From the NCBI GenBank assembly GCA_963817305.1, contig CAWFOD010000017.1, positions 357,821 through 421,820 on the forward strand: a stretch of DNA of 64,000 nt. The letters are read 5' to 3'. The DNA comes from an uncultured Acidobacteriaceae bacterium (lineage in GTDB: Bacteria; Acidobacteriota; Terriglobia; Terriglobales; Acidobacteriaceae). Position numbers and translations under genes: made by a program. Under the pieces are notes generated by a model. That model searched no databases, was not told the DNA's origin, and was given only the letters and a program-made list of their open reading frames with translations. Positions 4,116-48,511 of this stretch are shown here, piece after piece. How positions within the stretch are numbered: position 1 is the first letter of the stretch; each line of letters opens with the position of its first letter.

Positions 4116-5090
4116 ATGACACAAGTCTCGGGGACTCCGCACCTCATCGGTGTGGATGTGGGAGGCACCAAAGTAGCCGCCGGCCTGGTGAATGCTGCCG
4201 GCGAAATCACTTTTCAGACGCGAACTCCCATGGCAGCCAATGACGCTGCAGCCGGGTTGGCGGCGGTAATATCAGCGATCGATGCAGTTCGTGCTTCCTC
4301 TTCTTCCGCGACAGACAGCCCGATTTCGGGCATTGGCATCTGCGCTCCCGGGCCGCTCGATCCGCGCAATGGCGTCGTCATCAATCCGCCAAATCTTCCG
4401 GGTTGGCGAAATTTTCCGCTCGCTGCAGAAGTTTCCAAGGTCTACAAAGTTCCGGTTCGACTCGATAACGACGGAAACGCGGCTGCGTTAGCCGAGGCTC
4501 TATGGGGAGCTGGCCGCGGCTTTCGCAATGTTTTTTGCGCCACCATCGGTACTGGCATTGGAACCGGGATTGTTTTCGATGGCCGCATCTACCATGGCCG
4601 CACCGGCGCCGCCGCCGAAGGCGGTCACAACACAATTGACTATCGCGGTCCGCGTTGCGGATGCGGCAAGCTGGGTTGCATCGAGGCGCTGGCGTCCGGT
4701 CCGGCGATCGCGCGCAGAGCGGCGGAAAAGCTCGCCAAGCCAGGCCAGTCTTCGAAAATATTTGATCTGGCCGGCGGCCATCTCGATCGCATTAGCAGCG
4801 AGATGGTTGGCAAGGCTTATTCCGCGGGCGATAACTTGGCCAAAGAGGTTTTAGAAGAAACCGCGGGCCTCCTCGCCATTTGGCTGGGAAACATTGTGGA
4901 CTTACTTGAGCCGGACGTAATGATCATTGGAGGAGGCGCCGGCGCCATGCTGCGGCCCTTCTTCGATTTGATTCGCAATCGGCTGCCCGAGTGGTGCGTA
5001 AATTCCCATTGCCAGGAAGTTCCCCTGGTGGCTGCCCACTACGGTGCCGATGCCGGCATCGCCGGAGGCGCGGCACTCTGCCGAAATTAA
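4116..5090 (+). CDS. ROK family protein (glucokinase-like)
   Basis: 324 aa. N-terminal IGVDVGGTKVAAGLV ATP-binding motif, GTGIGTGIV, and the ROK Cys motif GHNTIDYRGPRCGCGKLGCIE. Confidence 0.85.
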   Translation: MTQVSGTPHLIGVDVGGTKVAAGLVNAAGEITFQTRTPMAANDAAAGLAAVISAIDAVRASSSSATDSPISGIGICAPGPLDPRNGVVINPPNLPGWRNFPLAAEVSKVYKVPVRLDNDGNAAALAEALWGAGRGFRNVFCATIGTGIGTGIVFDGRIYHGRTGAAAEGGHNTIDYRGPRCGCGKLGCIEALASGPAIARRAAEKLAKPGQSSKIFDLAGGHLDRISSEMVGKAYSAGDNLAKEVLEETAGLLAIWLGNIVDLLEPDVMIIGGGAGAMLRPFFDLIRNRLPEWCVNSHCQEVPLVAAHYGADAGIAGGAALCRN

Positions 5091-5305
5091 CTCTCGCTTT
5101 CCAGACCAGAGATTCCCGCCTGAACTTGAACTGATTAGGATCACGCTCGCACACGTCAGAGATCCCAACCAGCACGCCTTGTGACGTTCGCCGAACGATT
5201 GACACTCTCTCGCTTGGGGCGGTGAAGAGCTTAGGATTTTCAGCAACTTCTAAGCAAACCACCCTAGCTAGAACAGCGATTAATGCTTGACTCCGGTTTC
5301 GGCGC

Positions 5306-6253
5306 TTAAGCGTGAGTTGTGCGATGCAGCTTCGCGGCGCCGCTCTTTGCCGTCCGCGCTGCGAGCTCTTCGAAAGAAGGGACAGACTCGGGAACAATCA
5401 GTTTCCGCTCGGCTGGCTGGACTCCGGTGCGAATCGCTTCGGTGAGCATCTCCAACGCCAGGTCAGTGATAGGACGTATATAAATTGTTGCCGCCAGCAC
5501 TCCGCTTCGCACCCAGGCCTGCCCGGTCTTCGGCAAGCCATCACATCCCGTGAATGGAATCCTCAGCCAGCGCTCGCGATCACTTCCCGAGATCTCTTCA
5601 AATGCTTTTCTCGCGCCCGCTGCCATGCTGTCGTCTTGTGCTCCCACCAGATCGATTTGCGTTTCTTGCGACGTTCGCAATCGCAGCCACGAAGTCACTG
5701 CCCGGTGCGCGCTTTGCTCCGTCCAGTTCGCTCGCATCGTCTTCACTTGAATATTCGCTGGCTTGGTCCGGTTCATACCGGCAGTTCGCTCGTTGGCCGC
5801 GGAACTGTTCGCTGGACCCTCGATATATAAAATCGAACCGCCCTGCGGCAGCAACGCGGCAAACTGTTTGCCCTGAATCTCTCCGACTTCGCCATGATCG
5901 GAACTGATGGAGAATACCGGCACCTGGCAAGTCTGCCGGAGCTGGTGAACATAATCCGCTTCGTGATTCAGAATCACCCAGCCAATATCCGCGGCCGTAG
6001 CCGCACGCGCCACTTGCGGGAACCCGGTTCCACCCGCCGGCTCGAACACAATCGCATCGGGACGCGTTGCCGCCGCTCCCTGAATGTAATGCAGCAACTG
6101 CTGGCTCTGCGTTACCGCATCATTATTGGCGTGGATGATCTTCAGGTCCACACCCAACCGCCGCGCAGCTTTCTCTGCCGCGGCCGCCTGCTCTTGCTGG
6201 TAGTCGTTGTCGTCGTTGGTGAGAGAGACCAGGAAGTTGAGTTTTTTCATCAC
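5306..6253 (-). CDS. sugar-binding protein, periplasmic-binding-protein type I (LacI/ribose-binding fold)
   Basis: 315 aa. MKKLNFLVSLTNDDNDYQQEQ...IIHANNDAVTQSQQL...DAIVFEPAGG is typical of ribose/galactose-binding-like domains. No obvious signal peptide. Confidence 0.6.
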   Translation of the reverse strand: MMKKLNFLVSLTNDDNDYQQEQAAAAEKAARRLGVDLKIIHANNDAVTQSQQLLHYIQGAAATRPDAIVFEPAGGTGFPQVARAATAADIGWVILNHEADYVHQLRQTCQVPVFSISSDHGEVGEIQGKQFAALLPQGGSILYIEGPANSSAANERTAGMNRTKPANIQVKTMRANWTEQSAHRAVTSWLRLRTSQETQIDLVGAQDDSMAAGARKAFEEISGSDRERWLRIPFTGCDGLPKTGQAWVRSGVLAATIYIRPITDLALEMLTEAIRTGVQPAERKLIVPESVPSFEELAARTAKSGAAKLHRTTHA

Positions 6254-43822: not shown

Positions 43823-44110
43823 CTTGGACTCCGTTTGTGCCCAATCCGAGTATGGCGGTAAATGCTGATTTTGGGAACGATCCAGCAGTCGTTAAGCACT
43901 CGAAAGTAACGGCCCATCCGTGCAGATCTCTTCTAAGAGGGGTGGCCCACCCTTGCGCCTTTTGCAAGGGTGGGGATTCCCGAACCTGTCCAGTTTTTGA
44001 TTTCCCTTGCTGGTCCGGTCATCGGAGGCTTGAGGTCTGACCCGTGATCGCTCAGCAGAGCGGAATGCCATCCTTTCGCAAAAACCGCGAAAGGATGGGC
44101 CACCCGCCCT

Positions 44111-45000
44111 TGTCATCCTGAGGCAGGAGTCCTCGGCTACGCCGAGGACTCCCAACGAAGGACCTATGCAATTCGCCGACAGCACACAAGCTGGCGGGCA
44201 GCCTCACACGCGCTTCCATTTCCACGACCGAGGCTGCCCCACTCGTCGCGCTTTTCGACGAGTGGGAACCACGGACCTCAAAGTTCCGTTTCCGTCGCCA
44301 CCACAAGCGCCTGGGGCGGCCAATGAATATTCATGCGACTTCAGCCGACGCCCATTCTTCCGCATCTTGATTAACCACAATTGTCATCCTGAGGCAGCGG
44401 AGTCCTCGGCTACGCCGAGGACTCCCAACGAAGGACCTATGCAACTCGCCGACAGCACACAAGCTGGCGGCCCGCCTCACACGCGCTTCCATTTCCACGC
44501 CCGAGGCTGCCCCACTCGTCGCGTTTTTCGACGAGTGGGAACCACGGACCTCAAAGTTCCGTTTCCGTCGCCACCACAAGCGCCTGGGGCGGCCAATGAA
44601 TATTCATGCGACTTCAGCCGACGCCCATTCTTCCGCATCTTGATTAACCACAATTGTCATCCTGAGGCAGCGGAGTCCTCGGCTACGCCGAGGACTCCCA
44701 ATGAAGGACCTATGCAACTCGCCGACAGCACACAAGCTGGCGGGCAGCCTCACGCGCGCTTCCATTTCCACGCCCGAGGCTGCCCCACTCGTCGCGTTTT
44801 TCGACGAGTGGGAACCACGGACCTCAAAGTTCCGTTTCCGTCGCCACCACAAGCGCCTGGGGCGGCCAATGAATATTCATGTGGCTTCAACCGACGCATT
44901 CTTTCGCGTGTCGACCAACGCCGATTGTCATCCTGAGGCAGCGGAGTCCTCGGCTACGCCGAGGACTCCCAACGAAGGACCTATGCAATTCGCCGAGGCA
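44111..45000. repeat. tandem array of three ~271-273-bp units, each with two long hairpins
   Basis: The module tgtcatcctgaggcag..ggagtcctcggctacgccgaggactcccaacgaaggacctatgcaa recurs at 44111, 44382, 44655 and 44926. Each unit also carries cccactcgtcgcg(c)ttttcgacgagtggg. Related single hairpins lie at 43940-44105. Confidence 0.9.
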
Positions 45001-45295: not shown

Positions 45296-45332
45296 CCAAA
45301 AAGCCAAAGCCCCGAGTATCGCTCGGGGCTTC
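45296..45332 (-). terminator. rho-independent terminator (minus strand)
   Basis: Minus strand reads AGCCCCGAG-CGATA-CTCGGGGCT followed by TTGGCTTTTTGG. It lies outside the left inverted repeat of the IS1-like element. Confidence 0.5.
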
Positions 45333-45437
45333 GAGATACCAGACGACGTTCGCCAAACACCTTTTATGATAAACAGAGCAATTGAAATGTCAAACGACGG
45401 AGAAATTCGGTAGTGGGCTGTTTTGAATTTATTGGTT

Positions 45438-45833
45438 TTAGCTTGGCTTCGGGAACAGGTAATTGACCACGATGTATCCTAGACCCAAAACGTCGGCAGT
45501 GGTAGTTCCTATGAAAGCGATTAGAACCGAATTATCGAGATGAAAACCCAAAACATGAAAACCTAAAACATGAAAACCTTCCAACATCAGAACGGCCACT
45601 ACTGAGATGAGCCATCCAGCGCAGAGAGGGAAAAGCTTTTTTGCCCAGCGGTCGCGATGTCCAGTGTTTACACTGAGCGCATTATTCTCTAGGCGTAGCC
45701 TATCCAATTCTATCTTTTGGGTTTCAATCTGGTAGAACTCCCCGGCCGCTGGCGCAGCCGGGGCCACAACGATGCTATCGACCGTGAGGGCGGCGGGTTG
45801 ATTACCCTCTAACGGCGACTGGTTGTCTGTCAT
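45438..45833 (-). CDS. small membrane protein, candidate toxin partner of the Panacea-domain protein
   Basis: 131 aa. Its start overlaps the upstream gene by 32 nt. Two C-terminal hydrophobic helices. Internal 15-bp x3 repeat (GFHVLGFHVLGFHL). Confidence 0.5.
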   Translation of the reverse strand: MTDNQSPLEGNQPAALTVDSIVVAPAAPAAGEFYQIETQKIELDRLRLENNALSVNTGHRDRWAKKLFPLCAGWLISVVAVLMLEGFHVLGFHVLGFHLDNSVLIAFIGTTTADVLGLGYIVVNYLFPKPS

Positions 45834-46335
45834 GCTGGGATGCGGCGAGTCGCTCGAAATATTCCTTTATCACGTTGTCCGGAATATCCGTATTGCGAAC
45901 GTCCCTGTCGTAAACCTGACTCCACGGCGAATTTTCCGCGTGAGTCATGCTCGATAATTGACTGGCTGAATAACGACCATACAACTGCCAGACCCTAGCG
46001 ATGATTTGACGGGCGAGCATGTCTCGCGCAGGATCACCGCTATTAAGGCGATAGGCTCTAGTGACTACCTGTCCGTTCTCGAAATAAGCTTCGCCTGCTG
46101 GCGATGTGATTGGTCCACTCCCGTAACGCCTGAACTCGCTATACAGAGAAGGGATCACAGGCCCCCATTGCCACGCTTCGACACGTTCATCAAGAAGCCG
46201 TTCTCCAGTAATTGCCATGTACCAGCCGTAGGCAAAATAAACCAGCTTTTGCAACTGCATTGGAGTGAGCTGTTTGCCTTCGTTCTTGGCGAGCTCTAGG
46301 AACTCATTAGCTACTTGTTTTGAGGTGTACGGCAT
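45802..46335 (-). CDS. Panacea (DUF4065, SocA/GepA-like) domain antitoxin-type protein
   Basis: 177 aa. MPYTSKQVANEFLELAKNEGKQLTPMQLQKLVYFAYGWYMAITGERLLDERVEAWQWGPVIPSLYSEFRRYG matches the DUF4065 pattern closely. Confidence 0.8.
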   Translation of the reverse strand: MPYTSKQVANEFLELAKNEGKQLTPMQLQKLVYFAYGWYMAITGERLLDERVEAWQWGPVIPSLYSEFRRYGSGPITSPAGEAYFENGQVVTRAYRLNSGDPARDMLARQIIARVWQLYGRYSASQLSSMTHAENSPWSQVYDRDVRNTDIPDNVIKEYFERLAASQHDRQPVAVRG

Positions 46336-46458: not shown

Positions 46459-47312
46459 TCATGCGGCTTTTAGCGTTGCAGTCGAACGTAGATGTACCAA
46501 TTCCCCCAAACTCCAAACGTGGTCCGCGAGGCCCGCTTCCATCGCAGGAGTGCCCCGCAATGTTTGATGAATGCGGCAAAAATTGTAGTACACATGATAG
46601 ATGGCAACCATATGGCAGTGGTTTTCAAACTTCTTCGAAAATGCCTTCGTCAAGCGTGTAAACCGTCGGACACCCATCCGCAAATTGAGATTTTGCCTCC
46701 CCACATAACTCGTGGAAATGTACTGGCGATCAGGGTCACCGCTCAAGATACCAGTGCAAATACCAATGCACTGCGCAGGGCTGTAGCGGCTATCAGGATT
46801 ATCGGCGGGAGAGCCGTACAACTTTATCAGCATCGCGTAATCCACTTCATTCCGAAAGCACCTTCGACAGCTTCCGCGTAAGCGCGGTGACCGTCAGTCG
46901 TGATCTGAATGCGCGTGGTCACACGCGACGCCAAATCCTCCATGAATTTGCAGGCCCACGACGCATCGCGCCCGCCACACAGGTACGAGAGAATCAGCTT
47001 GGAATCTGCGTCAATCGCGGTCCAAGTCCATACGCTCCCTGCTCCCGCTCCTTGCTTTGATTCAGGAACGTTCTTCTCTTTCGCGTAGCAGAAACTCCAC
47101 ACTTCATCACATTGCACGCGCTGGACGCGGACGCCACGCACTGCAGAATCGTGAAACGCCGCGCACGCCGCGCCCATGTCACGAATGAGTTTGAGAACCG
47201 CGTCCTTACAGACGCCAGTCATACGCACCGTGGAACGGATGCTGTTTCCCTCTATCAAGGCTCCGATTACCTGTGGGCGACGTTCATTTGTTAGGCGGTT
47301 CATGACAATCAT
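46459..47312 (-). pseudogene. IS1-family-like DDE transposase, split by a frameshift near 46845-46855
   Basis: ORF 46827-47312 has an HTH, then ..VQCDEVWSFCYAKEKNV..WTWTAIDADSKL..ITTDGHRAYAEAVEGAFG. ORF 46459-46845 has ..DYAMLIKLYG..RQNLNLRMGVRRFTRLTKAFSKKFENH... One base is missing relative to an intact frame. Confidence 0.75.
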
Positions 47313-47396: not shown

Positions 47397-47630
47397 TTAG
47401 AAATACTAAGGGCCATCGACCCTGGATAGGCTTGCCGGCATGCCCAGAGCGAATGGCCCGAAAGGTGGTTCAGATGATAAGAAGTTTCGCCCCTAAAAAG
47501 GGCTAAGGGCAAAGGAAACTCCCTACACGATCTGCCAGAGCGGGGGCGTTCCAGACGTGGTGCGTCCCCCAATTTGGCTTTATCAAATATACCACGAAAC
47601 GGGCCGATTTTCAATAACGAGGTTAAGGTC

Positions 47631-48167
47631 ATGAGCAACGAACAGAATCCATTTGAAGCTGCAATTGCCGCGCTAGAAGCACGTCGTGCGCAGGTTAATG
47701 CGGAGATCGATGCGGACGTTGCCAAGCTGCGCGAGATCGGAGAACGCATGTCTGGTATGGCCCTAACATCTGGTGCAACGCCGAGCACGCCAGCCAAGAT
47801 CGAAAAGGACACGTTTTTCAATATGACGTTGCCAGATGCTGCCAAGAAGTTTCTCGCAATGTCTAACAGGAAGACGCAAACTACGAATGCGATTATTGAC
47901 GCCCTTGAAAAGGGTGGCCTGAAAAAGACTACCTATGCATCGATGTACGCTAGCCTGAGCCGTCGCGAAAATAATGTAGGCGACATCGTGAACGTAAATG
48001 GCGACTGGGGGCTTCCTGAGTGGTACGGGGCTAAACCAAAACCCAAAAAACGCAGTGCTGTGTCACTTAACCCTAAAGACTTCGAGGACGACGACGCGGC
48101 GATTGCAGAACAACACGACCAGCAGCTACGAGACGAGGAAGAATTGAAGGTCAACACTGAAACCTAG
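47631..48167 (+). CDS. hypothetical protein (cargo of the IS1-like element)
   Basis: ORF 47574-48167. ATG at 47631 after a GAGG RBS (MSNEQNPFEAAIAALEARRAQ..). Acidic C-terminus. Confidence 0.5.
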   Translation: MSNEQNPFEAAIAALEARRAQVNAEIDADVAKLREIGERMSGMALTSGATPSTPAKIEKDTFFNMTLPDAAKKFLAMSNRKTQTTNAIIDALEKGGLKKTTYASMYASLSRRENNVGDIVNVNGDWGLPEWYGAKPKPKKRSAVSLNPKDFEDDDAAIAEQHDQQLRDEEELKVNTET

Positions 48168-48403
48168 CTCGGCTCGGCCTTTTCCGCCTTCCACCTTACC
48201 CTAGCAGCTTGGCTTGCAATCTCCCTTTTGCGCTCGGGACTCAGTTTTTCCGCTCGGCGTTTTCCGCCGACCTTTCCGCCTAGCTTCCCGAGGGCTACAG
48301 CCGCCGGATTCTTTTTCTTAGCCTTCAATGGTGCGCCTGTCGCGATCTCCACAACCCTCAGCGCATTCTGTGCGAAATCTCTCTTGCTTGACCGTTTAAC
48401 CAT
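48164..48403 (-). CDS. small basic protein (79 aa), phage/plasmid-type KGG..RW tail
   Basis: NPAAVALGKLGGKVGGKRRAEKLSPERKREIASQAARVRW is a motif I recall from mobile-element proteins; this is from memory only. Confidence 0.45.
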   Translation of the reverse strand: MVKRSSKRDFAQNALRVVEIATGAPLKAKKKNPAAVALGKLGGKVGGKRRAEKLSPERKREIASQAARVRWKAEKAEPS

Positions 48404-48511
48404 GATTCAGTTTCCCAGACTTACATTGCTACGCGCAACACTAATCTGGCTAAAATTCAAAACAGCCCACTACCAGAAATTCGGAAACGCGTTTCGTCGC
48501 ATAATCGTGTC

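Follow-up and report, generated by a model that had tools for sequence, protein, structure and literature searches.

Pairs formed by a Panacea-domain antitoxin, PanA, and its toxin partner, PanT, were predicted in 1,268 cases and sorted into toxin clusters by Kurata et al. (2022, PMC8832971). In that study, the tested members of cluster T3 were a validated PanT of Escherichia coli STEC O31 and a toxic Vibrio cholerae member, and both the E. coli PanT (T3) and the Bartonella apis PanT (T12) depolarised and permeabilised E. coli, from which the cognate PanA rescued the cells; such a collapse of the membrane potential stops transcription, translation and replication together, and T12 was regarded by the authors as just 'possibly homologous' to T3 (PMC8832971). 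Here, we analysed a 64,000-nt stretch of an uncultured Acidobacteriaceae bacterium (contig CAWFOD010000017.1 of assembly GCA_963817305.1, positions 357,821 to 421,820, forward strand; hereafter the window, in which all coordinates of the locus are given) and compared with these systems a pair of adjoining genes, panA and panT, which, judged from its sequence, is a genuine PanAT two-gene toxin-antitoxin module and an ordinary member of the published kind. Taken as a whole, the observations below are probably best explained by a type II PanAT module in which a T3-homologous PanT would be neutralised by PanA, and which travels as a passenger of an element of the IS1 insertion sequence (IS) family.

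The nearest described system is PanAT with a cluster T3 toxin, as in the E. coli STEC O31 pair (PanA WP_000287252.1, PanT WP_000019185.1; PMC8832971), where a stand-alone Panacea protein is encoded upstream of the toxin, as in the window. In T3 pairs and in the window pair alike, the antitoxin gene comes first and the two genes are narrowly spaced or overlap slightly, and their PanTs share a charged N-terminal part followed by C-terminal transmembrane (TM) helices; on the other hand, the window pair differs in its acidobacterial host (Sulfotelmatobacter), in five extra loop residues and in its location within an IS, and its PanT is only 21–25% identical to Flavobacterium T3 members. A further comparison is with the Bartonella choladocola (apis) PanT_D11/T12 system (PMC8832971, PMC10440598); the window PanA keeps an aromatic residue preceding the GPV motif and the His of TH..PW. 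The antitoxin of the type VI SocAB system of Caulobacter has the same Panacea/SocA domain, whereas the window PanA misses the cut-off of the SocA equivalog model (122.9 against 190 bits) and its partner is unrelated to SocB; a SocAB-type adaptor mechanism is not expected. The type I toxins HokB and TisB, of which HokB served as the reference phenotype in Kurata et al. (PMC8832971), are functional analogues in that they are small inner-membrane proteins collapsing the membrane potential; unlike the PanT family, to which they have no sequence relation, they consist of one helix only and are kept in check by antisense RNA instead of a protein antitoxin. Toxin-antitoxin passenger genes have been documented in Tn3-family transposons (Lima-Mendez et al. 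2020, PMC7157771), where, as in the window, the pair lies inside a transposable element beside transposition genes; the carrier in the window is a DDE element of the IS1 family, with copies of about 2.5–3.3 kb, instead of a Tn3 transposon.

The features of the pair are as follows.

45802..46335, minus strand: panA, a stand-alone Panacea-domain antitoxin (177 aa) without an extra N-terminal domain.
45438..45833, minus strand: panT, a putative T3-like membrane toxin (131 aa) with polar residues 1–66, TM1 at about 67–88, a loop and TM2 at about 104–127.
45540..45579, no strand: a tandem repeat of a 15-bp unit (2.7 copies, 96% matches), encoding an extra GFHVL in the inter-helix loop of PanT.

The 3′ end of panA and the 5′ end of panT share 32 nt on the minus strand (45802–45833), which suggests translational coupling; both minus-strand open reading frames (ORFs) and their overlap had been reported by a first-pass annotation of the same DNA, and all of this was borne out. 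By reading the sequence directly, we found GGAG 8 nt 5′ of the panA ATG. In most homologous panA–panT loci the spacing lies between −47 and +7 nt (overlap or gap); one locus (L014) has a gap of 87 nt.

PanA matched the Pfam model PF13274 (SocA_Panacea) at residues 28–138 with E = 6.1e-19 and 69.4 bits, above the gathering score of 25.7, and the match covered positions 1–112 of the 113 in the domain. The earlier assignment to DUF4065/Panacea is thus supported by the domain search, and the motifs quoted for it, LQKLVYFAYGW and EAWQWGPVIPSLY, are present in the protein. The best match in NCBIfam was NF047745 (SocA_antitoxin, E = 1e-35, 122.9 bits, under the cut-off of 190), and in the PHROGs collection PanA matched phrog_1281 (E = 1e-43) and also phrog_10390. 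This is the single Panacea gene in the source genome, and neither PanA nor PanT had a sequence relative among solved structures. When we compared 16 PanAs partnered with the PanT family, the window PanA among them, W55, G58-P59-V60, Y65, H132 and W138 were invariant, and position 57, just ahead of GPV, was aromatic in 15. In a published PanA, the double substitution G62A V64S in the GPV motif affects neutralisation (Kurata et al. 2022, PMC8832971). The NetFlax study showed that neutralising a membrane PanT needs an aromatic residue next to β2 and a His at the end of α5, and that substituting either abolished neutralisation of the Bartonella membrane PanT (Ernits et al. 2023, PMC10440598). As judged from the motifs rather than from an alignment, the conserved positions in the window PanA would be the counterparts of those mutated in the latter study.

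A Kyte-Doolittle scan of PanT revealed hydrophobic stretches at about 67–88 and 104–127, separated by the loop with the GFH repeats, and the C-terminus reads NYLFPKP. The AlphaFold2 model, which is of modest confidence (mean predicted local distance difference test, pLDDT, 64), contains a long helix at 30–86 and another at 101–126. Scan and model agree with what had been read from the sequence at first sight, namely a polar N-terminal half and two C-terminal hydrophobic helices. Residues 31–66 hold seven K/R and six D/E. Because the only positive-charge cluster of the protein, HRDRWAKK, lies just before TM1, the positive-inside rule predicts a membrane hairpin with both ends in the cytoplasm. 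Searches of PanT against Pfam, NCBIfam and PADLOC gave no match and those against PHROGs only weak ones (E = 0.004–0.02), and a Foldseek search of the model (pLDDT 64) against the Protein Data Bank likewise gave none.

The loop reads GFHVL-GFHVL-GFHLD. It had been described as a threefold GFHVL repeat, which holds for the first two units, while the third, GFHLD, has GFH alone in common with them. All of the 22 aligned homologues, including one that is about 87–90% identical, have just two units, and the five extra residues are therefore, by this alignment, a lineage-specific in-frame duplication in the window copy.

A word-indexed search with PanT retrieved 45 homologues (E = 1e-65 to 7e-18), of which the few named ones were all 'Candidatus Sulfotelmatobacter' metagenome-assembled genomes (MAGs). 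When a profile of the family was run exhaustively over 1.84 billion representative proteins, 3,407 clusters (50% identity) reached E ≤ 1e-3, and 1,123 of these passed the stricter limit of 1e-10; a length of 85–200 residues was almost universal among them. In the alignment of close homologues, the N-terminal third is variable, apart from a small conserved LTVDSIV.AP, and the C-terminal part is strongly conserved, with 17 invariant columns including R60, W63, W74, G91, F97, L99, T111, T112 and a terminal N-x-L-F-P. Distant members have a common plan, which starts with a charged N-terminal part, in many cases with a helical prediction, and continues with the motif R-x-(Y/W) and a hydrophobic first helix that contains W-L; a short loop, closed by (G)F-x-L-(S/D)-D, then leads to a second helix of the form VLIALIG-TTAN-V-G...V..YLFP.

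The pairing with PanA is conserved as well: about 60 loci, spread over at least eight phyla, have panA directly upstream of a PanT-family gene. A motif scan with one genome per species yielded 19 loci in Acidobacteriota, NC10, Bacteroidota, Planctomycetota, Armatimonadota and two further MAGs, one labelled 'delta proteobacterium' and one Heliobacteriaceae. PanA was the immediate upstream gene in 17 of them, the two exceptions being a locus cut by a contig end and a decayed one (L018). Two homologues chosen by identity had PanA directly upstream with an overlap of 26 or 29 nt in unrelated surroundings (P63C and IS1595 genes for one; exosortase and tetratricopeptide-repeat genes and sigma-54 regulators for the other). 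Eleven of 400 other Bacteroidota genomes sampled had a match, with PanA preceding 8 of the 10 small-ORF matches, and in the Flavobacterium, Pedobacter and Sphingobacteriales loci PanA was upstream in 29 of 30 (gaps −47 to +7 nt); it was also immediately upstream of panT in three genomes of the same genus. Conservation of the pair as a unit, on which the first-pass annotation had made its reading depend, was thus found across many genomes and phyla. Carriage is sparse: of 400 other genomes from the phylum, 5 had the PanT family, and of 100 others from the genus, 4 did. Such a patchy spread is typical of accessory toxin-antitoxin modules. Searches by tblastn gave chance-level matches only for PanT homologues in phage records, and none in plasmids with a PanT-family member as query. 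Aside from this survey, two identical PanA/membrane-protein pairs were seen 221 kb apart on one contig of Bacteroides sp. f07 (L024 and L025), which suggests a duplicated mobile element.

The partner protein had at first not been recognised as any known toxin family; comparison with the published PanTs revealed distant homology to T3. Three pairs of the T3 list were identified among our loci by organism, gene order and gap, and one of them also by the accession of its PanA. In Flavobacterium chungangense LMG 26729 (L050), the upstream PanA is WP_031455055.1, an accession of the T3 list, and the toxin gene encodes 119 aa after a gap of 1 nt as in the list; the partner was taken to be WP_031455056.1 from its position and its name ('MULTISPECIES: hypothetical protein'). 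The Flavobacteriaceae bacterium CRH pair comes from the same assembly as in the T3 list and has the listed gap of −1, and the Chitinophaga terrae pair has a gap of 5, matching the list. Against profile A2, built from 28 PanT-family members with no Bacteroidota sequence, these three T3 proteins scored 54–55 bits (E = 6e-10 to 1.4e-9 at Z = 1.84e9). In addition, hhalign aligned the close acidobacterial family (A1) with the Flavobacterium T3 alignment (A4) at 97.0% probability (E = 1.2e-10) over 74 columns, which run from the R motif through the two helices to the terminal LFP. Statistics, architecture and synteny together make the assignment of the window PanT as a distant T3 member secure at the level of sequence comparison. 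Five WP accessions of PanT-family members that were checked against Dataset S1 of Kurata et al. were not present there, and a second large profile search with the family returned no E. coli protein among its matches. Cluster T1, which includes Acidobacterium capsulatum and other acidobacterial pairs, was also considered and dropped, since its tested members are predicted mRNases.

With its stand-alone Panacea protein upstream, a small partner with two predicted TM helices and a unit conserved across phyla, the locus upholds the original reading as PanAT. A large PanT family of small membrane proteins, labelled 'hypothetical' throughout and lacking a model in both Pfam and NCBIfam, is now assigned to T3, which extends this group into Acidobacteriota, where no PanAT had been studied before, and into several other phyla; this should aid annotation and the picking of new PanAT pairs to test. 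The accepted picture of PanAT action is unchanged by these results.

We infer toxicity, membrane depolarisation, direct neutralisation and biological role from validated relatives. By this analogy, free PanT would insert into the inner membrane, the membrane potential would be lost and growth would stop. PanA would neutralise the toxin by binding directly to the N-terminal region of PanT ahead of TM1: in the Bartonella system, the stand-alone Panacea was predicted to contact the unstructured N-terminal region and a short pre-TM helix of PanT, and mutagenesis confirmed this (PMC10440598). The variable N-terminal part with LTVDSIV.AP is likely to be the corresponding PanA-binding region. Translation coupled through the panA/panT overlap would mean that the antitoxin is made first. 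Located inside an IS1-family element, panAT would probably serve there for addiction or stabilisation, and it may also have a part in defence against phages.

Several observations weigh against this explanation. Upstream of panA we looked for a sigma-70-like promoter and detected none, and the lack of a PADLOC match for PanT mentioned above belongs here as well. Profile A1, the narrow one, matched T3 members only weakly (E = 0.005–0.04, Z = 1.84e9), and the relationship between the window PanT and T3 is therefore distant, its main support coming from the wider profile A2 and from hhalign; the tie to the validated E. coli toxin would run via other T3 members and rests on the authors' clustering. 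Among the PanTs tried in E. coli, 8 of 25 were non-toxic, including a membrane-type one from Clostridioides difficile (PMC8832971). Finally, at the decayed locus L018 the membrane domain persists beside a mostly deleted PanA, which is odd for a potent toxin unless its expression was lost, and which also fits a membrane protein that is harmless when not properly expressed.

As for the biological role, it is possible, albeit doubtful, that panAT serves mainly as an abortive-infection defence, in which Panacea would sense a phage cue and free the membrane toxin, so that the infected cell dies; this is compatible with a T3-like module neutralised by PanA and alters the biological role alone. In NetFlax, links to defence systems are drawn for PanA and similar modules and a sensor role is preferred for Panacea (PMC10440598), PanA matches the two phage families named above, and the distribution of panAT is patchy and accessory. 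However, PADLOC recognises neither PanA nor PanT, the neighbours of panAT are transposase genes with no other defence genes adjoining, and the search of phage records for PanT homologues ended at chance level.

It is rather unlikely that PanT does not arrest growth in its own host and is instead a membrane partner, anchor or effector that PanA controls or employs for a different end, within a module that is conserved without being an addiction module. The non-toxic PanTs in E. coli, one of the membrane type among them (PMC8832971), would suit such a role, as would the proposal from NetFlax that Panacea is primarily a sensor (PMC10440598) and the survival of the membrane domain at L018 in the absence of an intact PanA. 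Against this stand the two toxic members of the homologous T3 cluster, from E. coli and V. cholerae (PMC8832971), and three traits typical of toxin-antitoxin modules, namely a strict gene order with the antitoxin first, overlapping genes and a patchy spread.

A type VI mechanism like that of SocAB, in which PanA as a proteolytic adaptor would pass the toxin to ClpXP rather than sequester it, appears very improbable: SocA_antitoxin is indeed the best NCBIfam match of PanA, but its score falls well under the cut-off, PanT is a membrane protein unrelated to SocB, and validated PanAs form complexes with their toxins, with a stand-alone Panacea neutralising a membrane PanT directly (PMC8832971, PMC10440598). 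That the 131-aa ORF is a chance frame over the end of panA, for which nothing speaks except its lack of a match in curated libraries, has a negligible chance of being right and is already refuted by thousands of homologues with conserved motif and position.

We now turn to the carrier of the T3-like module. The pair is cargo of a 3,066-bp IS1-family element, a setting that the first-pass annotation of the pair did not mention. The genes of the element run in the order panT, panA, transposase, an ORF of 197 aa and a basic ORF of 79 aa. The remaining features are listed below.

45401..45408 and 48475–48482, no strand: target-site duplication, an 8-bp direct repeat AGAAATTC, read directly from the sequence.
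45409..45430, plus strand: left terminal inverted repeat, GGTAGTGGGCTGTTTTGAATTT, 22 nt, 7 nt past the panT stop.
48453..48474, minus strand: right terminal inverted repeat, 22 nt, 100% complementary to the left one.
46459..47312, minus strand: split IS1-like transposase (ORF1 161 aa, ORF2 128 aa) with a frameshift near 46845.
47574..48167, plus strand: 197-aa ORF in the middle of the element, with a weak HARE-HTH match (E = 0.05).
48164..48403, minus strand: 79-aa basic ORF beside the right repeat, conserved in many copies of the IS.
45304..45334, minus strand: terminator-like hairpin (13 pairs, followed by CTTTTTGG), located in host DNA beyond the IS element.

The 22-bp repeat sequence occurs at just these two sites in the whole genome. 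Transposase ORF1 aligns to residues 1–155 and ORF2 to residues 158–273 of an intact 276-aa homologue; the break falls in the catalytic domain (46820–46860), and homologues elsewhere are single ORFs of 276–321 aa. Since it is split by a frameshift and no slippery motif was found at the break, the window transposase is probably inactivated. It resembles IS1 transposases with scores below the cut-offs of PF03400 (18.6 against 24.1 bits) and NF033558 (51.6 against 100). In L092, where this IS family has an intact transposase of 315 aa, the match to PF03400 (DDE_Tnp_IS1) reached 31.3 bits against the cut-off of 24.1. Homologues of the 197-aa ORF adjoin the same inverted repeat in two other loci (L094 and L153), and the 79-aa ORF had phmmer matches of E = 1e-14 to 1e-29 in 12 loci bearing the repeat. 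The 79-aa protein carries the motif KKNPAAVALGKLGG.KGG.ARA..L....R.EIA..AA.ARW and matches neither Pfam nor NCBIfam. An empty target site was sought in 18 same-genus genomes, in which the right flank alone was conserved and the left was not. The hairpin at 45304–45334 was considered as a terminator of the panAT operon and dropped, because it sits in host DNA beyond the element; it could halt read-through from panAT.

Outside the source genome, the 19-nt outer part of the repeat was found at 119 or more places, the majority in Terriglobia, and PanA or PanT occurred in none of the 80 of these loci that were examined. The usual element of 2.5–3.3 kb consists of a repeat, the transposase, a middle ORF, the 79-aa ORF and the second repeat, and 7 of 8 other full copies examined had 8-bp target duplications. 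What separates the left repeat from the stop codon of the transposase differs between copies and measures 20 nt in some of them. In one copy (L083, 2104–2766), the slot that panAT occupies in the window holds a 73-aa ORF and a PemK/MazF-type toxin (PF02452, 29.7 bits against 23.1); in another (L107, 2791–3541), the cargo is a 99-aa ORF and a 148-aa aspartyl-protease-like protein (PF13650, 24.4 bits, borderline), an arrangement that looks like a two-gene module. Small membrane ORFs fill the slot in further copies. Since its contents vary in this way, panAT is one of several alternative passengers of the slot, at least two of which are toxin-antitoxin pairs. Passenger genes can also occur in the ISMhu11 group of the IS1 family (ISfinder), which the window element resembles in this respect, as does the second copy with the MazF-like pair in its slot.

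The closest relative of the window pair, 87% identical at the DNA level, was found on two metagenome contigs (L079 and L080). There, the pair lies in a 1,196-bp cassette (4213–5408) bounded by the same repeats with one mismatch each and flanked by its own 8-bp duplication, CGAATCTG, and the cassette contains panAT alone plus about 135 bp homologous to the right end of the window element. Two origins are conceivable for this cassette: internal deletion within a larger element, or movement in trans as a non-autonomous unit. Three same-genus genomes carry panAT without these repeats, so that the module also occurs free in the chromosome. Thus, the same pair has been seen in the chromosome, in a full IS1-family element and in a 1.2-kb mini-cassette, a concrete and testable example of mobility. 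Tentatively, and with some doubt, we suggest that a dedicated IS1 cargo slot repeatedly captures toxin-antitoxin modules as the addiction device of the element itself, and that the 1,196-bp cassette is a trans-mobilised, non-autonomous 'toxin-antitoxin MITE' (miniature inverted-repeat transposable element); if this is true, a membrane-toxin module spreads as a minimal transposable unit. The mildly novel aspect of the locus is that an IS1-family element carries panAT in its cargo slot and that a cassette holding panAT only exists. A literature search, which was not exhaustive, found no published PanAT in an insertion sequence.

Some further observations were made around these elements. A ribbon-helix-helix/PIN (VapBC-like) pair at 5460–6115 directly adjoins the cassette in L079/L080, and the two pairs therefore form a small toxin-antitoxin island. 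At four loci (L082, L103, L118 and L149), MITE-like elements of 328–524 bp have these 19-nt repeat ends on either side and contain no ORF of ≥50 aa matching the transposase, the other ORFs of the element, PanA or PanT; solitary repeat ends occur at many loci. At L018 (1600–3280, an NC10 MAG), a homologous transposase and a small basic ORF adjoin the decayed panAT locus, where about the first 20 codons of PanA are left, fused out of frame to a 95-aa membrane-protein remnant. A diverged repeat-like sequence follows the remnant, no clear pair of terminal repeats was found at this locus, and it may be a dead remnant as a whole. Just left of the window element, at 44110–44996, lies a tandem repeat of a 273-bp unit in 3.3 copies with 95% identity, which yields several long repeated ORFs on both strands.

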